A DNA stretch of 39,908 bases from a virus (Duplodnaviria; Heunggongvirae; Uroviricota; Caudoviricetes), in the IMG/VR virus record IMGVR_UViG_2703718871_000021, positions 1-39,908 of that record. The stretch is one strand, 5' to 3'. Shown piece after piece: positions 27,372 to 33,878 of this stretch (the stretch's first letter is position 1; the number at the start of each line of letters is the position of its first letter). The notes beneath the pieces were generated by a model. The model saw only the letters and a program-made list of their open reading frames with translations. It was not told the DNA's origin and did not search any database. Made by a program: the position numbers and the translations under genes.

Positions 27372-28517
27372 ATGGCACAGGGCTTGCCTGTATCAAACGT
27401 TGTTAATGTTGATGTGATCATGTCGCCGCGTGCAGCATCAGGGCGAAATTTTGGTGCATTACTCATTCTCGGCCCGTCCACAATCATTCCGGTAAGTGAG
27501 CGCATTCGTCGTTATTCTGCCGCGGAAGATATTGGAAAAGATTTTGGCGTGGAATCACCAGAATATAAGGCTGCGCAGGTGTTTTTCTCACAATCACCGA
27601 AACCTCAGGAGGTTTTTGTTGGTCGTTGGGTGAAAACGAAGGGAGACAGCGAACAGGCCACGCCTGAGACGCTGGAGCAGGCTGTGAATGCCATGCTCGA
27701 TTATACTTCATGGTATGGGCTGGGGATTGCAGACGATGAAGATATTCCGGATGCAGACTGGCTGAAAGTGGCTGCGGCGATTGAATCCTCTTCTGTAAGC
27801 CGTATTCTGGCGATTACGACAAGCGATGAGAAATGCCTGCAGACTGCATCCAGCGATGATTTGGCATCAAAACTGAAAACCGCCGGATATTCACGCAGTT
27901 TTATTCAATATTCATCGGGTAATAAATACGCTGCGTTATCTGCATTTGGCCTGGCATTCACGGTTAATTTTAATGGCAGTAATACCGCGATTACGCTCAA
28001 GTTTAAGCAGGAGCCGGGTGTCGGGTATGAAACACTGACAGTCAGCCAGGCATCGGCACTTGATGCAAAAAACTGCAATGTATTCGTGTACTACCAGAAT
28101 GATACGGCTATCCTCCAGCAGGGAGTGATGGCTAACGGCGATTTCTTTGATGAACGCCACGGCCTGGACTGGTTACAGAATTATGTGCAGACCAACCTCT
28201 ATAACCTGCTTTATACCAGCACCACGAAAGTTCCCCAGACTGAAGCCGGTATTACCCGACTGTTATCAAATGTAGAAAAATCACTGGATCAGGCCGTTCA
28301 GAATGGACTGATTGCTCCGGGCGTATGGAACGGTGGCGACCTTGGTCAGTTGTCATCAGGTGACACGCTGCCCAAAGGTTATTACGTATACGCCCAGCCG
28401 CTGGATGAACAGGCACAATCAGAACGTGAAGCCCGTAAGGCTCCGGTGAGTCAGGCTGCAATAAAACTTGCAGGCGCGGTTCATTACGCTGACGTACAGA
28501 TTAACGTTGTTCGCTAA
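27372..28517 (+). CDS. putative contractile tail sheath protein
   Basis: 381-aa ORF directly followed by a ~146-aa tube-sized gene, chaperone with frameshift and tape measure, the standard myovirus order. Confidence 0.6.
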
Positions 28518-28527
28518 GGGGAAGTGA

Positions 28528-28968
28528 ATGTCTACCTATTCTTTTATGGATGTCACTGCGACGCTGACCGGGCCGACCGGTTCGATTGACCTCGGGTACG
28601 GTTCGGCAAGTTCTGAAGAGGGGATTGTGGTTGCGATGGGCGGTCCTAAAAACACCATGACCATCGGTGCTGATGGCGAAGTGATGCACAGCCTCCATGC
28701 AGATAAAAGCGGGACGATTACCGTTAACCTTCTGAAGACATCACCGACAAATAAAAAATTGTCGCTGGCGTATAACGCACAGAGCCAGTCTTCTGCCTCA
28801 TGGGGGAATAACGTTATCGTGATCCGCAACAAGGTCAGCGGCGACATCATCACGGCACGCAGTGTTGCGTTCCAGAAACAACCGGATAACGCCAACGCTA
28901 AAACCGGTAATACGATGCCGTGGGTGTTTGACTGCGGCAAGATTGACCAGGTTCTCGGGGAGTTTTAA
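28528..28968 (+). CDS. putative tail tube protein
   Basis: 146-aa ORF between sheath and chaperone genes. Confidence 0.55.
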   Translation: MSTYSFMDVTATLTGPTGSIDLGYGSASSEEGIVVAMGGPKNTMTIGADGEVMHSLHADKSGTITVNLLKTSPTNKKLSLAYNAQSQSSASWGNNVIVIRNKVSGDIITARSVAFQKQPDNANAKTGNTMPWVFDCGKIDQVLGEF

Positions 28969-28971
28969 TAC

Positions 28972-29424
28972 ATGGAATTCGAAATTAAAGGCGTGAAATA
29001 TCGCGCGGCAAAACTCAGCGTTTTTGACCAGCTGAAAGTGACCCGTAAACTTCTGCCGGTACTGGCGGGAATGATGTCAGATTTCGGGAGCATTCGCTCC
29101 CGTTTGCCTGCTGACGGCAAAATCGACACCGTGAAATTCGAGCAGTTAAAACCGGTGTTTGAAACCATGCTCCCGCGTATCGCTGAGGAACTGTCTTCCC
29201 TGACCGAAGATGACACCGATGCGATTATTCATCCCTGTCTTGCGGTGGTATCGCGGCGTCATATGGACGGATGGGTGCCGGTATTTACCCATGGCGAACT
29301 GATGTTTGATGATATTGACTTGCTGGTCATGCTTCATCTGGTGGCGCGGGTGGTCGCCGATTCGCTGGGAAATTTTTTGCCTACACCCCTTACCAGCACG
29401 ACGCAGAGCCTGCAACAGGGCTGA
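28972..29424 (+). CDS. tail assembly chaperone (short form)
   Basis: 150-aa ORF immediately before the tape measure gene; slippery heptamer near its 3' end. Confidence 0.6.
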   Translation: MEFEIKGVKYRAAKLSVFDQLKVTRKLLPVLAGMMSDFGSIRSRLPADGKIDTVKFEQLKPVFETMLPRIAEELSSLTEDDTDAIIHPCLAVVSRRHMDGWVPVFTHGELMFDDIDLLVMLHLVARVVADSLGNFLPTPLTSTTQSLQQG

Positions 29425-29621
29425 CGTTTAACAGCCTGCCGGACGGGCTGTCCTACCTTCTCAATCCGGTTGACGCCGGGTTAATTCCTTATACAGCACT
29501 TAAAGATGGCTCTGTCGATTTGTACGACATTGCTCTCTTGAATGACCATCTGGCGGTAAAAGCGGATAACCAGCGGCGCATTGAGAAATGGAGAGAGGAT
29601 AATGAACGCCGAGACTATTAA
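28972..29621 (+). CDS. tail assembly chaperone, extended form via predicted -1 programmed frameshift at T_TTT_TTG (29373-29379)
   Basis: The -1 frame after the slippery site stays open for ~80 codons (…GLTFNSLPDGLSYLLNPVDAGLIPYTALKDGSVDLYDIALLNDHLAVKADNQRRIEKWREDNERRDY) and ends at 29621, overlapping the tape measure start. Confidence 0.45.
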
Positions 29622-31590
29622 AGATTTCCTCGTCTCGCTTGGCTTCAGTGTGGATGATGCAGGAGCGAAAAAATTCGGTTCTGTCCTCGCCGGTACAACT
29701 GCAAATGTCATCAAAATGGGGCTGGCCGTCGAAGGAGCTGCGCTGTCCGTGGTGGCCTTCACGGCTAAGATCGCCTCCGGTCTGGATAATCTTTACTGGG
29801 CGTCACAGCGCACCGGCGCGACAGTCCAGGGAATTCAGTCTATTGGCTATGCGGTTTCGCAGGTTGGCGGCAGCGTGGACGCTGCGCGATCTTCTCTGGA
29901 AAACCTCTCCCGGTTTATTCGTAATAATCCCGGGGCGGAGGGATTTCTGAATCGCCTGGGCGTACAGACCCGTGATGCCAGCGGTAACATGCGTGACATG
30001 GCCGCTATCTTTACGGGCGTTGGACAGAAACTCAGCAGCATGCCGTATTACCGGGCTAACCAGTATGCGCAGATGCTGGGCATTGACGAAAATACCCTTA
30101 TGGCGATGCGCCGGGGTGTGGGTGGCTTCTCCGGGCAGTACAGCGCAATGGCGAAAGCTATCGGCTTCAATGCTGACGAGGCGGCCAGAAGCTCCAACAA
30201 ATTTATGACCTCCCTGCGTGAGTTTAGCGCGATGGCAGGCATGGCCCGTGACAAAATCGGCTCTAATCTTGCGGGTGGGCTTGCAGGTTCGCTGGACACC
30301 CTGCGCCGCCATATCCTGGACAACTTCCCTCGTATCGAGCAGACCCTGACGAAAGCCATAAAAGGCATTCTGGCGCTCGGGGATATTATCGGGCGGCTGT
30401 TCTTCAGACTGATTGAGGGGACATCAGGCCTTATCACCTGGTGGCAATCGCTGGATAAGCAAACGCGGGAGTTGATCTCGCTGTTTGGCGCACTGACGAT
30501 TGCGCTGCGCATTCTGAACAGTACGTTCTGGATGTCGCCGGTTGGCCTCATTACCGCGCTGGCGGCGGGGATTGCCCTCCTGTGGGAGGACTATCAGACC
30601 TGGAAGGAAGGCGGCGACAGCCTGATTGACTGGGGCAAGTGGAAACCGGAGGTCGATGCCGCGCTGAAGATGGTTCGTGACCTTAAAACGACCGTTAACG
30701 ACCTGGCGAAAGCGCTGGCGAAACTACTCAATATTGACCCCAAATCATGGTCCCTGAAGTGGGATTTCAGCAACTTCATCGACCAGATGGGCGAATTCAG
30801 CAAAATGCTGAACATGATCGCCGACCTGCTCAACGCTATCAAAGATGGCCGCTGGGCTGATGCCGTCAGCATCGGCAAACAGATACTTAATCAGGGCAGC
30901 GAAAATCCGTCAGCGATGCCGATGGTTACAGACAGCGCTAATAGTACTGCCGACTGGATTAAAGAGCACTGGGGATTCGATCCCCGCAGTGTGGGCCGGA
31001 CGGTACGCGGCTGGTTTGGTGATGATGAGCCGGAACAACATGCACAGGCTACGAAACGAGGAGAACGGAATAACAATCCGGGAAACCTTAATTTTGCTGG
31101 TCAGGCGGGGGCTTCTCTTGAACGCCCGGGCGGGCGATTTGCCAGATTCGAAACTGCCTTTGATGGATTACGGGCTCTTGCTCGTCAGTTAATGTTGTAC
31201 GCCGGACGGGGAATAAACAGCGTGGAGAAAATTGTCTCTACCTGGGCGCCTGCGTCTGATAATAACAACACAACTGCGTATATCAGGGCTGTATCGCAAC
31301 GACTGGGAGTGGATCCCCGGGCTGCCCTGAATATGAGCGATCCGCAAACCATGTCAGCATTGATGAGCAGCATTATCCAGCATGAGAATGGAAGAAATAT
31401 CTATTCTCGAGAGCTGATTAATAAGGCTGCCGTGGCGGGAATTAGTGGCAAAGTGACAGAGGTTAACCAGCAAAATACCTACCACATTTACGGTGGCGGA
31501 GATCCGCACGCTGTCGGTAATGAGGTTGCACGTCGGCAACAGTCTGCAAATGCTCAGGTCATGCGAAGTAATCAGGTGAGGGTGGGTTAG
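29602..31590 (+). CDS. tail tape measure protein
   Basis: ~662 aa from ATG 29602 (RBS GGAGAGAGGA); long Ala/Gly/Leu-rich helical protein in the position after chaperone genes; hydrophobic central segment. Confidence 0.75.
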   Translation: MNAETIKDFLVSLGFSVDDAGAKKFGSVLAGTTANVIKMGLAVEGAALSVVAFTAKIASGLDNLYWASQRTGATVQGIQSIGYAVSQVGGSVDAARSSLENLSRFIRNNPGAEGFLNRLGVQTRDASGNMRDMAAIFTGVGQKLSSMPYYRANQYAQMLGIDENTLMAMRRGVGGFSGQYSAMAKAIGFNADEAARSSNKFMTSLREFSAMAGMARDKIGSNLAGGLAGSLDTLRRHILDNFPRIEQTLTKAIKGILALGDIIGRLFFRLIEGTSGLITWWQSLDKQTRELISLFGALTIALRILNSTFWMSPVGLITALAAGIALLWEDYQTWKEGGDSLIDWGKWKPEVDAALKMVRDLKTTVNDLAKALAKLLNIDPKSWSLKWDFSNFIDQMGEFSKMLNMIADLLNAIKDGRWADAVSIGKQILNQGSENPSAMPMVTDSANSTADWIKEHWGFDPRSVGRTVRGWFGDDEPEQHAQATKRGERNNNPGNLNFAGQAGASLERPGGRFARFETAFDGLRALARQLMLYAGRGINSVEKIVSTWAPASDNNNTTAYIRAVSQRLGVDPRAALNMSDPQTMSALMSSIIQHENGRNIYSRELINKAAVAGISGKVTEVNQQNTYHIYGGGDPHAVGNEVARRQQSANAQVMRSNQVRVG

Positions 31591-32177
31591 TGGATATTCT
31601 CTCTACACTTTTTCATCAGCAGAGCAGAAAAATAGGAATGATTGTTCCCAGTGTTGTTATTTCAGAGAAGCATACAGATATGCTTGAAATAACAGAGCAT
31701 CCGGTAGAGGTCGGGGCCGCTGTCGCTGATCATGCCTATAAAAAACCGTCAGAAGTGGTGATGGAGGTTGGTTTCGCCGGTGGCGGCGCATTGCTGGATT
31801 TTGCCAGTAACCTGACGGCTACCAGCCTGCTCGGCCTGAGTCCTCAGCAGACGTATCAGGAGCTACTGGGTCTGCAGGAAAGCCGTATCCCCTTCGATGT
31901 GGTAACCGGTAAACGGCTGTACAGCAACATGTTGATCCGGGCGCTGGAAGTGACGACGGACAAGACAACCGAAAACGTCCTGTCCGCCGTCCTCACCCTG
32001 AGGGAGGTCATTATCTCCCGGACACAGCAGATTACCGTCGCGGATAAAACCAACATGAAGGAAGGGGCCAGCACGTCGGCGGTACAGAACAGCGGCAACA
32101 AAACCACAAAGCCTCCAGATACTTCACTGCTGAAAAGCATCACGGGTAACGTGGCGTCATTACTGGGGGGCGGCTAA
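31590..32177 (+). CDS. hypothetical tail/baseplate protein
   Basis: 195-aa ORF, start overlaps tape measure stop. Confidence 0.5.
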   Translation: MDILSTLFHQQSRKIGMIVPSVVISEKHTDMLEITEHPVEVGAAVADHAYKKPSEVVMEVGFAGGGALLDFASNLTATSLLGLSPQQTYQELLGLQESRIPFDVVTGKRLYSNMLIRALEVTTDKTTENVLSAVLTLREVIISRTQQITVADKTNMKEGASTSAVQNSGNKTTKPPDTSLLKSITGNVASLLGGG

Positions 32178-32479
32178 TGACAATTCAGGAAATTCCGCTG
32201 ACAGCGGACAATCAGCAGTTCAGCATCGTCCTGGGGGGTGTCACCTGGCGGATTAGCATCATATGGCGCGATCTGTACTGGATTATGGACCTGCAGAACG
32301 ACAGAGGGGAGCCGGAAATCTCCGGTATTCCTCTCGTCACTGGTGCTGACCTGCTGGCGCAGTACGCCTGTATGGGGCTTGGTTTTAAGCTGGTGGTGGT
32401 CTGTGATGACAACACACAGGATTACCCCACAAAAACTGACCTGGGCGGTCGCAGCCATTTACTGGTATCAACGGAGTAA
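32177..32479 (+). CDS. hypothetical tail/baseplate protein
   Basis: 100-aa ORF overlapping neighbours. Confidence 0.5.
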   Translation: MTIQEIPLTADNQQFSIVLGGVTWRISIIWRDLYWIMDLQNDRGEPEISGIPLVTGADLLAQYACMGLGFKLVVVCDDNTQDYPTKTDLGGRSHLLVSTE

Positions 32480-32481
32480 GC

Positions 32482-33546
32482 ATGTCACAGAACTGGATGA
32501 GACATTTCGAGCTGCAGCTTGTGGACGGGAACGGTCAGGGAATTGAGCTAAGTGATTTCAAAGTCACCTTTACGATCGACTGGTTCAACATCAGCAGCGC
32601 GTCCCGGGTAGGGACTATCAAAATTTATAACCTCTCGGCAGATACTGTGAACCGAATTACCGGGCAGGAGTTTTCGAAAGTGCGTCTGATTGCGGGTTAC
32701 GACGGTATCGCGCCGGAGGTGTCGGCAAGCGACGTCGGGACAGTGCGGGAAGTTGACGCGGCGGACGTGGGCCAGAGTGATGGTCGCAACTACGGACTGA
32801 TTTTCAGCGGTGAAATTCGCTACTCGGTCACAGGAAAAGACAGTCCGGTTGATTCCTACGTCCTGATTCAGGCAGCCGATACAGATCTGGCTTTTGCCAC
32901 CAGTATAACCTCACAGACGCTGGCTGCCGGTTACACGGTCGCTGATGTAAACCGTGCGCTGATGAAAGACTTTGAAGCCAAAGGCGCGACCGAAGGCCTG
33001 ACGCCTGAAATGCCTGCGACTGTATTCCCCCGGGGGCGGGTGCTCTTTGGCATGACGCGGCATCTTATGGATAACGTAGCCGGGCAATGTGGCGCAACAT
33101 GGCAATTCGTGGATGGTCAACGCCAGATGGTGGCGAATAATGAATATGTTCACGAAGCGATTGTGCTCAACAGCGCTACCGGGCTTATTGGCATGCCGCA
33201 GCAGACCATCGGCAACGGCGTAAACGTCCGCGCGCTTATTAATCCGAACATCCGGGTTAACGGGCTCATTCAGCTGGATCAGGCTTCGGTGTATCGTACC
33301 GCGTTGTCGAACAACGATATCGCGATGGCCGGTGGGCAGATCACCGACCAGAACACAGACGGAAATATCACGCTCAGCGGCACCACATCGCAGCCTGCCA
33401 GCATCGCAACGGATGGCGTTTATATTGTGCGCGGGATTATGTACACTGGTGACACAAGGGGCCAGGCGTGGTACATGGACATGATGTGCGAAGCGCGCGG
33501 CGCGGCGGATCTTGTTTCCTCATCAGCGAGGGGAAGAGGACTTTAA
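32482..33546 (+). CDS. putative baseplate hub/tail protein
   Basis: 354-aa ORF in the position of Mu/P2-type hub proteins between tape measure and spike; assignment by synteny. Confidence 0.5.
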   Translation: MSQNWMRHFELQLVDGNGQGIELSDFKVTFTIDWFNISSASRVGTIKIYNLSADTVNRITGQEFSKVRLIAGYDGIAPEVSASDVGTVREVDAADVGQSDGRNYGLIFSGEIRYSVTGKDSPVDSYVLIQAADTDLAFATSITSQTLAAGYTVADVNRALMKDFEAKGATEGLTPEMPATVFPRGRVLFGMTRHLMDNVAGQCGATWQFVDGQRQMVANNEYVHEAIVLNSATGLIGMPQQTIGNGVNVRALINPNIRVNGLIQLDQASVYRTALSNNDIAMAGGQITDQNTDGNITLSGTTSQPASIATDGVYIVRGIMYTGDTRGQAWYMDMMCEARGAADLVSSSARGRGL

Positions 33547-33878
33547 TGAAACGGTTCTGTTTGGCGTTAGCAATGATGGTTACTGCTCCGGCGATGGCTG
33601 CAATTCAGTGCGGCAATTACACAATGACCGGTGACGGAATGACTGTTATTAACGGTGAAACCGTCACATCTCAGAAAATCAAATTTCTGGGAAAAGATGG
33701 TGACGACTCAAACATGAAAATGGACATGGGCCTGATGCCTTCTCGCGATGGTAACAATTACGGCTTTGAGTTTGTGAAGCGTAACGGAAAAGCTTTCCTG
33801 AACGTCCAGCTGCTGCAGAACAGCATGGACGCGCCGAGAATTATCGGATCTTTCCCGTGTAAGAAAGTCGCTGGGTGA
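33546..33878 (+). CDS. small secreted protein with signal peptide (unknown function)
   Basis: 110 aa from ATG 33546 overlapping previous stop (TAATG); MKRFCLALAMMVTAPAMA then AIQ looks like a Sec signal peptide with AxA cleavage site; two Cys in mature part. Confidence 0.5.
   Translation: MKRFCLALAMMVTAPAMAAIQCGNYTMTGDGMTVINGETVTSQKIKFLGKDGDDSNMKMDMGLMPSRDGNNYGFEFVKRNGKAFLNVQLLQNSMDAPRIIGSFPCKKVAG

Follow-up and report, generated by a model that had tools for sequence, protein, structure and literature searches.

The programmed -1 ribosomal frameshift that gives rise to gpG and gpGT in phage lambda, and the conservation of such a frameshift in the chaperone genes of long-tailed phages, were reportedly described by Levin in 1993 and by Xu, Hendrix and Duda in 2004, 2013 and 2014. 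The E/E+E' tail genes of P2, a temperate enterobacterial phage with a contractile tail like the one studied here, are reported to shift on the heptamer T_TTT_TTG. Systems of the G/GT type yield a short and a fused protein in a fixed ratio, both of them required for tail assembly and neither present in virions. The -1 frameshift of the tail assembly chaperone is conserved in long-tailed dsDNA phages (summarised in PMC5009743). In lambda, the tape measure protein is bound by the N-terminal domain, whereas the tail tube protein is the partner of the domain made only by frameshifting, and frameshifting of the P2 type is 2-3 fold more efficient than that of lambda (PMC5009743). A purely comparative argument, as ours is, has been made for the TAC-N/TAC-NC proteins of the Vandenendeviridae/Andersonviridae (Pseudomonas phage Adele, PMC12846349), where, as in the present case, the locus is that of a myophage, the downstream ORF is routinely mis-annotated as hypothetical, the -1 frame is open in every genome and a T-rich slip motif lies near the 3' end of TAC-N. 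The motif of the Adele-type phages is an invariant GTTTTT, whereas the family described below has N_NNT_TTT, which the enteric clade lengthens to GGGAAATTTTTTG.

The stretch of DNA analysed here (the window, 39,908 nt) comes from a SEN34/Brunovirus-like E. coli prophage. Its tail assembly chaperone gene is very probably decoded in two ways by means of a -1 slip on the 13-mer GGGAAATTTTTTG, with predicted products of 150 aa and 216 aa. This frameshift is already known in kind and is annotated in homologues, and the present locus is a further case.

Results

All of the features discussed here lie on the + strand. The tail sheath gene (27372..28517; Pfam DUF3383, 1.4e-99; phrog_205 'tail sheath', 1.6e-133), the presence of which shows that this is a contractile-tail phage, is followed by the tail tube gene (28528..28968; Pfam KPP10_Orf10, also named Phage_Tube_PhiTE, 1.3e-60) and, directly 3' of it, by the tail assembly chaperone ORF (28972..29424), which runs from an ATG at 28972 to a TGA at 29422-24 and encodes the short zero-frame product of 150 aa. 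This ORF, the counterpart of lambda gpG / TAC-N, matches Phage_TAC_15 (PF21822) over residues 6-138 (106.4 bits against a cutoff of 22, 2e-30) and phrog_1688 'tail assembly chaperone' (1.8e-64), and the top matches of the chaperone in a BFVD fold search are tail assembly chaperones. Next comes the -1 frame extension (29379..29621), the 'T-like' C-terminal part of the predicted fusion, the 3' end of which overlaps by 20 nt the ATG (29602) of the gene encoding the tape measure protein (29602..31590, 662 aa; phrog_2276 'tail length tape measure protein', 4.6e-283). PGAP places the start of the homologous tape measure gene at this same ATG, and the encoded protein has a transglycosylase-like region at its C-terminal end. 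The chaperone ORF pair is thus flanked by the tube gene on one side and the tape measure gene on the other. Lambda has this order too, and there the two ORFs also overlap and the second is likewise in the -1 frame and startless.

The -1 frame is open from 29319 to a TAA at 29619-21, which gives 80 codons when counted from 29379. Residues 37-75 of the extension (29487..29603) match DUF6889 (Pfam PF21829; 73.5 bits against a cutoff of 23.9, 1.1e-20) and residues 25-77 match phrog_4364 (2e-23); on sequence grounds, the extension is a real coding sequence with a conserved domain. A scan of the -1 ORF for start codons found no ATG and no GTG, only TTG at 29520 and 29538. A Pfam search with the chaperone and the extension (E <= 0.1) returned nothing beyond Phage_TAC_15 and DUF6889, NCBIfam holds no family matching the fusion, and a profile built from the fusion alignment had no meaningful match among solved structures (best E 0.39). 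The dual-frame overlap extends over 29380..29424, where the zero-frame tail reads PTPLTSTTQSLQQG before its stop and the -1 extension begins with AYTPYQHDAEPATG. Residues 135-150 at the zero-frame end have a pLDDT below 50, and the PTPLTSTTQSLQQG tail is dispensable-looking.

Scans of viral contigs provided the loci of the family. In all of these loci (205/205 by HMM), the frame of the extension is -1 with respect to the chaperone, and the same relation is found in 16/16 annotated phage loci, although these raw counts overstate the number of independent observations, since the relatives lack phylogenetic independence. The phages covered are those of Escherichia, Salmonella, Yersinia, Klebsiella, Hafnia, Providencia, Acinetobacter, Ralstonia, Bordetella and Burkholderia. 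From about 29377, inside the overlap, the most variable codon position changes from position 3 of frame 0 to position 2, which is position 3 of the -1 frame. Within the overlap, frame 0 has an amino-acid diversity of 0.38 and frame -1 one of 0.23; in the latter, A, P, Y and Q are invariant and D and P nearly so while the zero-frame residues vary. Further 3', the diversity falls to 0.083 for the -1 frame, compared with 0.30 for the others. Of the 12 columns that are invariant in the family alignment, 7 belong to the extension. These patterns show that purifying selection, as read from the aligned sequences, passes from frame 0 to frame -1 right after the slip site.

The initial annotation had proposed a G/GT-type chaperone frameshift on T_TTT_TTG (29373-29379), followed by a -1 frame open for about 80 codons up to 29619-29621 and overlapping the tape measure start. 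TTTTTTG is indeed found at this place, in phase and close to the chaperone ORF's 3' end, and the open frame has the extent given above. The G/GT-type assignment is supported by the gene position, the -1 frame, the startless ORF, the conserved slip motif and coding selection, and the extension, for which a lack of conservation in relatives would have spoken against the proposal, keeps its -1 relation throughout the family. The zero-frame codons at the site are TTT (29374-76) and TTG (29377-79), putting the heptamer in X_XXY_YYZ phase at codons 135-136 of the 150-codon ORF, 15 codons ahead of the stop. It is the last of three overlapping in-phase heptamers (G_GGA_AAT, A_AAT_TTT and T_TTT_TTG) within the slippery 13-mer GGGAAATTTTTTG (29367..29379). 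TTTTTTG alone occurs at chance level (14 in the window against 11.5 expected), and 59 in-phase X_XXY_YYZ heptamers are found in the window's ORFs of at least 100 aa; the full 13-mer occurs once, against 0.13 expected. It is because of its context, namely the rarity of the 13-mer, the Pfam match of the -1 ORF and the conserved arrangement, that the observation exceeds chance. A tally of heptamers with an open -1 frame behind them, taken over all ORFs of 100 aa or more, was set aside as non-discriminating, as shadow ORFs and gene overlaps score alike. GGGGGGC at 32165, ahead of the next gene, is an example of such a non-specific heptamer.

The sole element kept family-wide is the in-phase T_TTT on a Phe codon (29373-76), present in 185/185 unique sequences. 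It is included in A_AAT_TTT (29370..29376), which occupies the most widely kept heptamer position of the family, with X_XXT_TTT in 158/185 unique sequences; a canonical heptamer is missing in 27/185 relatives (~15%), which have the T_TTT tetramer only. The full 13-mer is found in 80/185 unique sequences, and the codons GGA AAT TTT TTG (29368-79) are invariant in the 74/74 unique enteric ones. Judged by codon usage, the slip motif is retained against codon bias in the GC-rich relatives: TTT stands at the slip codon in 79/79 of them, whereas elsewhere TTC makes up 92% of their Phe codons and TTT 8%, and the codon preceding the slip TTT ends in T in 79/79, against 6.7% of codons generally. Some lineages have a -1 frame stop directly 5' of the motif and an overlap of just 40-61 nt, which confines the shift to the slip motif there. 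In E. coli, A_AA.G ranks above U_UU.Y, the second-best A-site slip tetramer, and heptamers of the form R_RR.U_UU.Y are shift-prone (PMC4066793). From the sequences compared, A_AAT_TTT at 29370-76 is most likely the shift site, perhaps shared with T_TTT_TTG, which may be a second site, or an alternative one, in the enteric clade. With regard to the exact shift codon, the three overlapping heptamers all lead into one frame, and any of them may serve.

The proposal of T_TTT_TTG as the shift site was only partly borne out, since the heptamer is in phase, but its position is slippery in only 90/185 unique sequences, while T_TTT and X_XXT_TTT one codon upstream are conserved. We consider it rather unlikely that the shift takes place exclusively on T_TTT_TTG, as in P2 E/E+E', with the upstream heptamers being mere by-products of conserved Gly-Asn-Phe codons. 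This would fit the invariance of the heptamer among the enteric sequences, its reported role as the P2 E/E' shift site, and the slippery heptamers found at this position in Providencia and Ralstonia relatives (T_TTT_TTT, T_TTT_TTC). However, 95/185 unique relatives are non-slippery there (TTT ATT or TTT ATC in Acinetobacter and Burkholderia relatives; also TTT ATG) and all of them retain T_TTT one codon upstream, so that, unlike in P2, T_TTT_TTG marks a position kept in only about half of the lineages. The P2 gpE-type Pfam family gave no match at E up to 0.1, and only the heptamer sequence is common to P2 and the present locus. Furthermore, heterogeneous codons in the A site, UUG among them, are less prone to shift in E. 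coli than UUU/UUC. Sharma et al. selected 18 motifs for being both efficient in the absence of a stimulator and under-represented in genes, and these include U_UU.U_UU.C and U_UU.U_UU.U but not U_UU.U_UU.G. The SD-like GGTGG described below is moreover 20 nt from the second base of T_TTT_TTG, beyond the 6-17 nt stimulatory range. A_AAT_TTT thus remains our preferred site.

A downstream RNA structure, which the initial annotation had suggested looking for, did not materialise. The single-sequence fold of 29380-29500 has a z of -1.16 and the fold spanning the slip site a z of -0.01, the eight-sequence consensus fold contains 2 pairs only (-0.38 kcal/mol) and no conserved stem-loop or pseudoknot, and an Rfam scan of 28900-29800 (E <= 1) yielded zero matches. 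With no conserved downstream structure, the efficiency of frameshifting may be low. The lambda gpG/gpGT site resembles the present one in that no strong downstream RNA structure is evident. E. coli dnaX and IS911/IS3 are similar in their tandem tRNA slippage on X_XXY_YYZ, and an upstream SD-like stimulator (tested range 6-17 nt) may be a further likeness. They differ from our family, which has no conserved downstream hairpin or pseudoknot of the kind that starts 4-10 nt after the motif and in which the SD-like element is missing in the Acinetobacter clade.

Just 5' of the slip site lies an invariant 18-nt sequence, GTGGCGCGGGTGGTCGCC (29341..29358), that contains the SD-like GGTGG (29349-53) and shows zero synonymous changes among 74 unique sequences. 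The minimum of synonymous diversity of the whole chaperone gene falls at 29341-29376 (p 0.004 for a pre-specified window, 0.18 for any window), and a possible hairpin at 29339-59 has one compensatory pair. An SD-like motif 6-17 nt upstream of the site is found in 135/185 relatives, against a background of 13.7%, and the distance of GGTGG from a heptamer's second base is 14 nt for the first heptamer, 17 nt for the second and 20 nt for the third. It is possible, from its sequence and position, that GGTGG acts as an upstream stimulator. A more elaborate idea, which we hold to be doubtful, is that the enteric clade has a 'slippery ramp', in which each of three consecutive in-phase heptamers (G_GGA_AAU, A_AAU_UUU, U_UUU_UUG) would offer an entry into the one -1 frame, and a 5' element (the 18 nt, with SD-like GGUGG or the small hairpin) would take the place of a 3' structure. 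If this were true, frameshifting would be cumulative, possibly unusually high or tunable, two isoforms (with FF and FL junctions) would be made, and DUF6889 would be the tube-recruiting 'T' domain of the chaperone family.

An explanation without any frameshift, in which DUF6889 is a separate small gene with its own initiation or with termination-reinitiation (at CTG 29448 or TTG 29520) and yields a free peptide of ~35-55 aa, is highly improbable. It is the view taken by current annotation, as PGAP calls a 54-aa 'DUF6889 family protein' in 26 of the 27 full-length E. coli matches listed and several phage records call short DUF6889 ORFs with ATG, TTG or GTG starts. Nevertheless, the PGAP start is a CTG without a Shine-Dalgarno sequence, the -1 ORF of the window offers neither ATG nor GTG, and the annotated starts (CTG, ATG, TTG, GTG) are at non-homologous positions, several of them removing the conserved LPxGEDWLxRP motif. 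Conservation of the -1 frame begins at 29379, 5' of the chaperone stop and of every proposed DUF6889 start, and what all 205 loci keep, namely the -1 relation, the overlap and the slip motif, would be superfluous for a free-standing gene. Independent initiation and termination-reinitiation were therefore rejected, there being no credible start and conservation beginning upstream. Least probable of all is transcriptional slippage, in which the T6 run would make RNA polymerase stutter, so that some mRNAs gain an extra U and, translated normally, give a fusion with the junction GNFFAYTPY. The run is homopolymeric, the window's sequence with one T added to the run (T7) encodes exactly such an in-frame TAC_15+DUF6889 protein with this junction, and one relative clade has T7. 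We rejected this explanation because efficient bacterial polymerase slippage is documented for runs of ~9 A or T (PMC5009743), T6 is short, the majority of the family has only T4 (AAATTTTAT, CCCTTTTAT) and yet keeps the same motif, and the phase-specific conservation (an in-phase T_TTT, mostly within a heptamer) is something that tRNA re-pairing would require and polymerase slippage would not.

Discussion

Our analysis argues for a ribosomal -1 frameshift as the source of the second chaperone product. In this model, the majority of ribosomes would stay in frame 0 up to the TGA at 29422-24, giving the 150-aa chaperone of 16.5 kDa, and a minority would move back by 1 nt on GGGAAATTTTTTG and read 80 more codons in the -1 frame to the TAA at 29619-21, producing a 216-aa fusion of about 24 kDa whose C-terminal part bears DUF6889. 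The sequences show the anatomy of the locus, the conserved frame relation and slip motif, and the selection on the -1 frame; the shifting, its codon and its frequency we infer. In the likeliest slip, the A-site tRNA-Phe would re-pair from UUU at 29374-76 to UUU at 29373-75 while the P-site tRNA-Asn moves from AAU to AAA (heptamer A_AAT_TTT), with a junction of ...GNF-FAYTPY, the one that is also encoded in frame once a T is added to the run. Slips on T_TTT_TTG one codon later (junction ...GNFL-AYTPY) or on G_GGA_AAT one codon earlier could contribute. An AspN junction peptide DSLGNFFAYTPYQH is predicted for a shift on A_AAT_TTT or G_GGA_AAT and a junction peptide DSLGNFLAYTPYQH for a shift on T_TTT_TTG, the zero-frame C-terminus being DSLGNFLPTPLTSTTQSLQQG. 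As for the binding partners of both domains, we infer them from what is known of lambda gpG/gpGT: the N-terminal domain common to both products would coat the tape measure protein, and the domain found only in the frameshift product would bring in the tail tube protein, with the frequency of slipping setting the ratio of the two proteins.

The locus differs from lambda G/T in several respects. There is no detectable sequence similarity between the two, the families here being Phage_TAC_15 and DUF6889, and the tail is contractile. The slip region consists of three overlapping heptamers, and its family-wide core is U_UUU, not A_AAG. The finding brings the SEN34/Brunovirus-like, E217/Pam3-type contractile tail module under the lambda G/GT rule and leaves the understanding of phage tail assembly unchanged. 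The family constitutes a natural series of slip sites, from U_UUU alone through X_XXU_UUU to the triple heptamer, with or without SD-like elements and in hosts of widely differing GC content, which could be used for testing how the strength of a slip site is tuned.

The result is mainly one of annotation and curation, since recognising the frameshift leads to the correct 216-aa product, and many phage records share the error. In RefSeq, the extension is entered as a 'DUF6889 family protein' in its own right, beginning with a CTG. Among the 5,426 complete E. coli genomes searched, there are 346 in which the chaperone's second half either is missing or stands by itself as such a 'DUF6889 family protein' with an implausible CTG start. 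DUF6889 is likely to be the frameshift-encoded C-terminal domain of Phage_TAC_15 chaperones. A literature search found no paper mentioning DUF6889 and no protein-level report of the fusion for any homologue. In GenBank, a 'tape measure chaperone frameshift product' is recorded for Klebsiella phage Mulock (MN098327, CPT_Mulock_014/015) and Burkholderia phage Magia (MT701587, CPT_Magia_015/016). These frameshifts are known as database annotation only, that of Mulock going unmentioned in its genome announcement, and the slip motif of Magia is C_CCT_TTT, not the enteric 13-mer. Both are true homologues of the present case, with extensions 64.5% (Mulock) and 42% (Magia) identical to that of the window and the same -1 layout and motif position, and the fusion lengths that we derived for them, 205 aa for Mulock and 250 aa for Magia, equal those of the deposited joined CDS.

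A predicted -1 frameshift in the tail assembly chaperone gene

Our analysis gives good support to the prediction that the tail assembly chaperone is decoded by a programmed -1 frameshift. The chaperone ORF starts at ATG 28972 and runs for 150 codons to the TGA at 29422-29424, and its product (28972-29424) matches Pfam Phage_TAC_15 (2e-30) and phrog_1688, 'tail assembly chaperone' (1.8e-64). The initial annotation had placed a TTTTTTG heptamer (29373-29379) near the 3' end of this ORF, followed by a -1 frame that stays open for about 80 codons and overlaps the start of the tape measure gene. All its coordinates proved correct on re-reading of the sequence: the heptamer lies in X_XXY_YYZ phase as T_TTT_TTG (codons 135-136), the extension covers 80 codons from 29379 to the TAA at 29619-29621, and it overlaps the tape measure ATG (29602) by 20 nt. 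The 80-aa extension (29379-29621) matches Pfam DUF6889 (1.1e-20) and phrog_4364, of unknown function (2e-23). The sequence at the site (...CGC TGG GAA ATT TTT TGC CTA...) is read as CTG GGA AAT TTT TTG CCT in the frame set by ATG 28972. The -1 frame begins after the TGA at 29316-29318 and is open as far as TAA 29619-29621; between 29319 and 29621 it contains no ATG or GTG, its only start-like codons being two TTGs (29520 and 29538).

The conserved frameshift of tail assembly chaperones, first known from lambda G/GT, was generalised by Xu, Hendrix and Duda (PMC5009743). The arrangement at 28972-29621 shows every sequence-level hallmark of this conserved frameshift, and at the level of Pfam families its sequence is unrelated to lambda G/T and P2 E/E'. 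Much the same comparative argument was recently made for Pseudomonas phage Adele and the Vandenendeviridae, from a T-rich motif followed by an ORF mis-annotated as hypothetical (PMC12846349).

The TTTTTTG heptamer is by itself unremarkable, with 14 occurrences in the window where 11.5 are expected; 59 in-phase heptamers lie in the window's ORFs of at least 100 aa, several of them ahead of long -1 frames that are open for trivial reasons. The Dit-like baseplate gene (31590-32177), for example, has an in-phase GGGGGGC (32165-32179) four codons from its stop, where the -1 frame is that of the next gene (32177-32479); since the two genes share a single base (TGATG), this site looks like ordinary translational coupling, not frameshifting.

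Conservation and frame of selection

We compared 18 annotated phage loci and 188 IMG/VR loci, testing the frame relation with two HMMs, one for the chaperone part and one for the extension. The extension is conserved in related phages and lies in the -1 frame relative to the chaperone in all 205 loci containing both, which, together with the conserved motif and selection in the -1 frame, supports the G/GT-type frameshift proposed in the initial annotation. The -1 ORF opens 5' of the chaperone stop in 16/16 loci inspected by hand. In the Klebsiella ST340 phage, EKP1, Acinetobacter A785.1 and the Providencia clade, a stop closes the -1 frame immediately before the slip motif, leaving an overlap of just 40-61 nt and confining any frame change to the motif. 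The chaperone gene of one IMG/VR locus (L095, IMGVR_UViG_2877274432_000001) is cut short by an indel, with a stop after 18 codons; either the prophage is degraded or the contig is misassembled.

We followed variability by codon position in 74 unique sequences sharing 74-99% identity with the window. It peaks at zero-frame position 3 until about 29376 and, from 29377, at zero-frame position 2, i.e. position 3 of the -1 frame, the switch being visible already within the 45-nt overlap. In the overlap, A, P, Y and Q of the -1 frame never change and D and P hardly do, while the zero-frame residues vary (P/Q/L, V/T/G/A, S/P/L, P/L). Amino acid diversity in frames 0 and -1, respectively, is 0.069 and 0.151 upstream (29320-29361), 0.38 and 0.23 in the overlap (29380-29421), and 0.30 and 0.083 downstream (29425-29600). 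Of the 12 columns that are invariant when the family's predicted fusions are aligned, 7 fall in the extension. These patterns of sequence variation indicate that the -1 frame is translated from the slip site onward, which would exclude initiation or reinitiation 3' of the chaperone stop.

The window extension ends in ...NERRDY* (29610-29621; TAA 29619-29621). In 72/80 close relatives and in E. coli 22KM0354, CGA 29610-29612 is replaced by TGA, making the extension three residues shorter.

The probable site of the shift

The slip region is a triple heptamer: the motif GGGAAATTTTTTG (29367-29379) contains G_GGA_AAT, A_AAT_TTT and T_TTT_TTG, overlapping, in phase and all leading into one -1 frame. 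The codons GGA AAT TTT TTG are invariant in 74/74 unique enteric sequences, and all three heptamers are kept in 78/80 close IMG/VR loci. Over 185 unique family sequences, the in-phase T_TTT tetramer on the Phe codon (29373-29376) is present in 185, an X_XXT_TTT heptamer (AAATTTT or CCCTTTT; 29370-29376) in 158, a heptamer at the G_GGA_AAT position (29367-29373) in 95, and T_TTT_TTG or T_TTT_TTT at 29373-29379 in 90. The remaining 27 at the X_XXT_TTT position (~15%) lack a canonical heptamer and have T_TTT only, with GCCTTTT, TCCTTTT, TTCTTTT, GTCTTTT or ACCTTTT, or Providencia-type CAGTTTT/TAGTTTT, in its place; Burkholderia-type examples are loci L017, L125, L130, L135, L142, L156, L161, L181, L191 and L198. 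In 79 GC-rich relatives, the Phe codon at the site is TTT in 79/79, against TTC in 92% elsewhere, and the codon before it has T as its last base in 79/79, against 6.7% of codons generally (CCT is <5% of Pro codons), a departure from codon bias pointing to selection on the nucleotide sequence, not the protein.

In a systematic E. coli study, Sharma et al. ranked A-site tetramers A_AA.G > U_UU.Y > C_CC.Y, with homogeneous A-site codons (UUU, UUC) outshifting UUA or UUG, and found R_RR.U_UU.Y heptamers shift-prone (PMC4066793). Given this ranking, the family counts and the codon bias, A_AAT_TTT (29370-29376) would be the most parsimonious shift site. The heptamer originally proposed, T_TTT_TTG, is thus in phase, but the likely shift codon lies one position upstream (T_TTT on that codon in 185/185, a slippery heptamer at 29373-29379 in 90/185). 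A shift on A_AAT_TTT would give the junction GNF-FAYTPY and one on T_TTT_TTG, which may contribute in the enteric clade, GNFL-AYTPY; G_GGA_AAT may add to shifting in the same clade. The predicted fusion is 216 aa by either junction.

Alternative explanations of the extension product, and its annotation

Transcriptional slippage at the T run could in principle also yield a long product, but it would call for a longer run, efficient slippage having been documented at ~9 A or T (PMC5009743); most of the family has T4 only, yet conserves the phase. One Logan assembly (SRR23924998; L019:1896-1915, equivalent to window 29367-29379) has T7 in place of T6 and encodes an in-frame 213-aa TAC_15+DUF6889 protein (P0001; junction GNFFAYTPY; 16 member sequences in its 90% cluster). 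This T7 probably reflects a homopolymer error, a defective allele or a natural 'fusion-only' allele, and its protein illustrates the fusion product. Translation of DUF6889 independently of the chaperone is contradicted by the lack of a conserved start and by -1 selection beginning at the slip site.

In 26 of the 27 full-length rows listed, RefSeq/PGAP nevertheless gives DUF6889 a gene of its own, for a 54-aa 'DUF6889 family protein' starting from a CTG without a Shine-Dalgarno sequence at window-equivalent 29448 (L005:1977-2141, equivalent to 29448-29612), and repeats it across hundreds of E. coli genomes. The frameshift extension appears to be systematically mis-annotated in this way. In other records the region is unannotated, or short ORFs are called from ATG, TTG or GTG codons whose positions are not homologous. 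Two homologous records by one annotation group, those of Klebsiella phage Mulock and Burkholderia phage Magia, already include the feature as a joined 'tape measure chaperone frameshift product'; our derived fusions of 205 aa (Mulock) and 250 aa (Magia) equal the deposited CDS spans. We found a frameshift of the Phage_TAC_15/DUF6889 chaperone described in no paper. The main value of the present analysis is the correction of a widespread annotation, and it gives DUF6889 a probable role as the frameshift-encoded part of the predicted chaperone fusion.

Candidate stimulatory elements

Folding supports no RNA structure downstream of the slip site, and an Rfam search of the locus gave no match. Upstream, the 18 nt 5' of the slip site (GTGGCGCGGGTGGTCGCC, 29341-29358) have no substitution in the 74 unique sequences, even at four-fold degenerate sites, and are kept in more distant Klebsiella, Citrobacter and Hafnia phages. 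The 12-codon stretch 29341-29376 has the lowest synonymous diversity of the whole gene (0.04 vs a gene mean of 0.17; permutation p = 0.004 as a pre-specified window, 0.18 for any window). A GGTGG (29349-29353) within it is spaced 14, 17 and 20 nt from the three heptamers. Shine-Dalgarno-like motifs in range (6-17 nt upstream of the second base of the heptamer) occur in 135/185 relatives, against a background of 13.7% when in-frame positions in these genes are drawn at random; they differ by clade (GGTGG, GGAG, AGGA), and the Acinetobacter clade has none in range. Among the 18 sequences without a slippery heptamer anywhere, ten have such a motif 9-11 nt upstream and eight have none. A small hairpin (29339-29359) with one compensatory pair may be an alternative reading of 29341-29358. 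A 5' stimulator is possible.

The host element and neighbouring genes

The element carrying the chaperone is a temperate myophage, 98% identical over the region to Escherichia phages vB_EcoM-606R2, -689R2, -611R5 and -683R1 and related to Yersinia phage YP3 and Salmonella phage SEN34 (genus Brunovirus). It was found in 346/5,426 complete E. coli genomes, and in strain 22KM0354 is integrated adjoining shoB and yfhL. The AF2 model of the chaperone is of moderate confidence, and the zero-frame tail is disordered in it. Among predicted viral structures it resembles proteins annotated as tail assembly chaperones; no match to a solved structure was found with the model or a sequence profile. The chaperone gene is preceded by those for a tail sheath of DUF3383/E217_gp31_N type (27372-28517) and a tail tube of KPP10_Orf10/PhiTE type (28528-28968). 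The tape measure protein (29602-31590) has 662 aa and a transglycosylase-like C-terminus; a domain that degrades the cell wall is probable, since residues ~474-650 match transglycosylase/endolysin PHROGs and PGAP names the whole protein 'lytic transglycosylase'. Baseplate proteins (Dit-like, Pam3_gp18-like, E217_gp41-like) are encoded from 31590. A 110-aa ORF (33546-33878) that separates the baseplate hub gene from the rest of the baseplate genes has a signal-peptide-like N-terminus (MKRFCLALAMMVTAPAMA...) and may be a moron or a lipoprotein.
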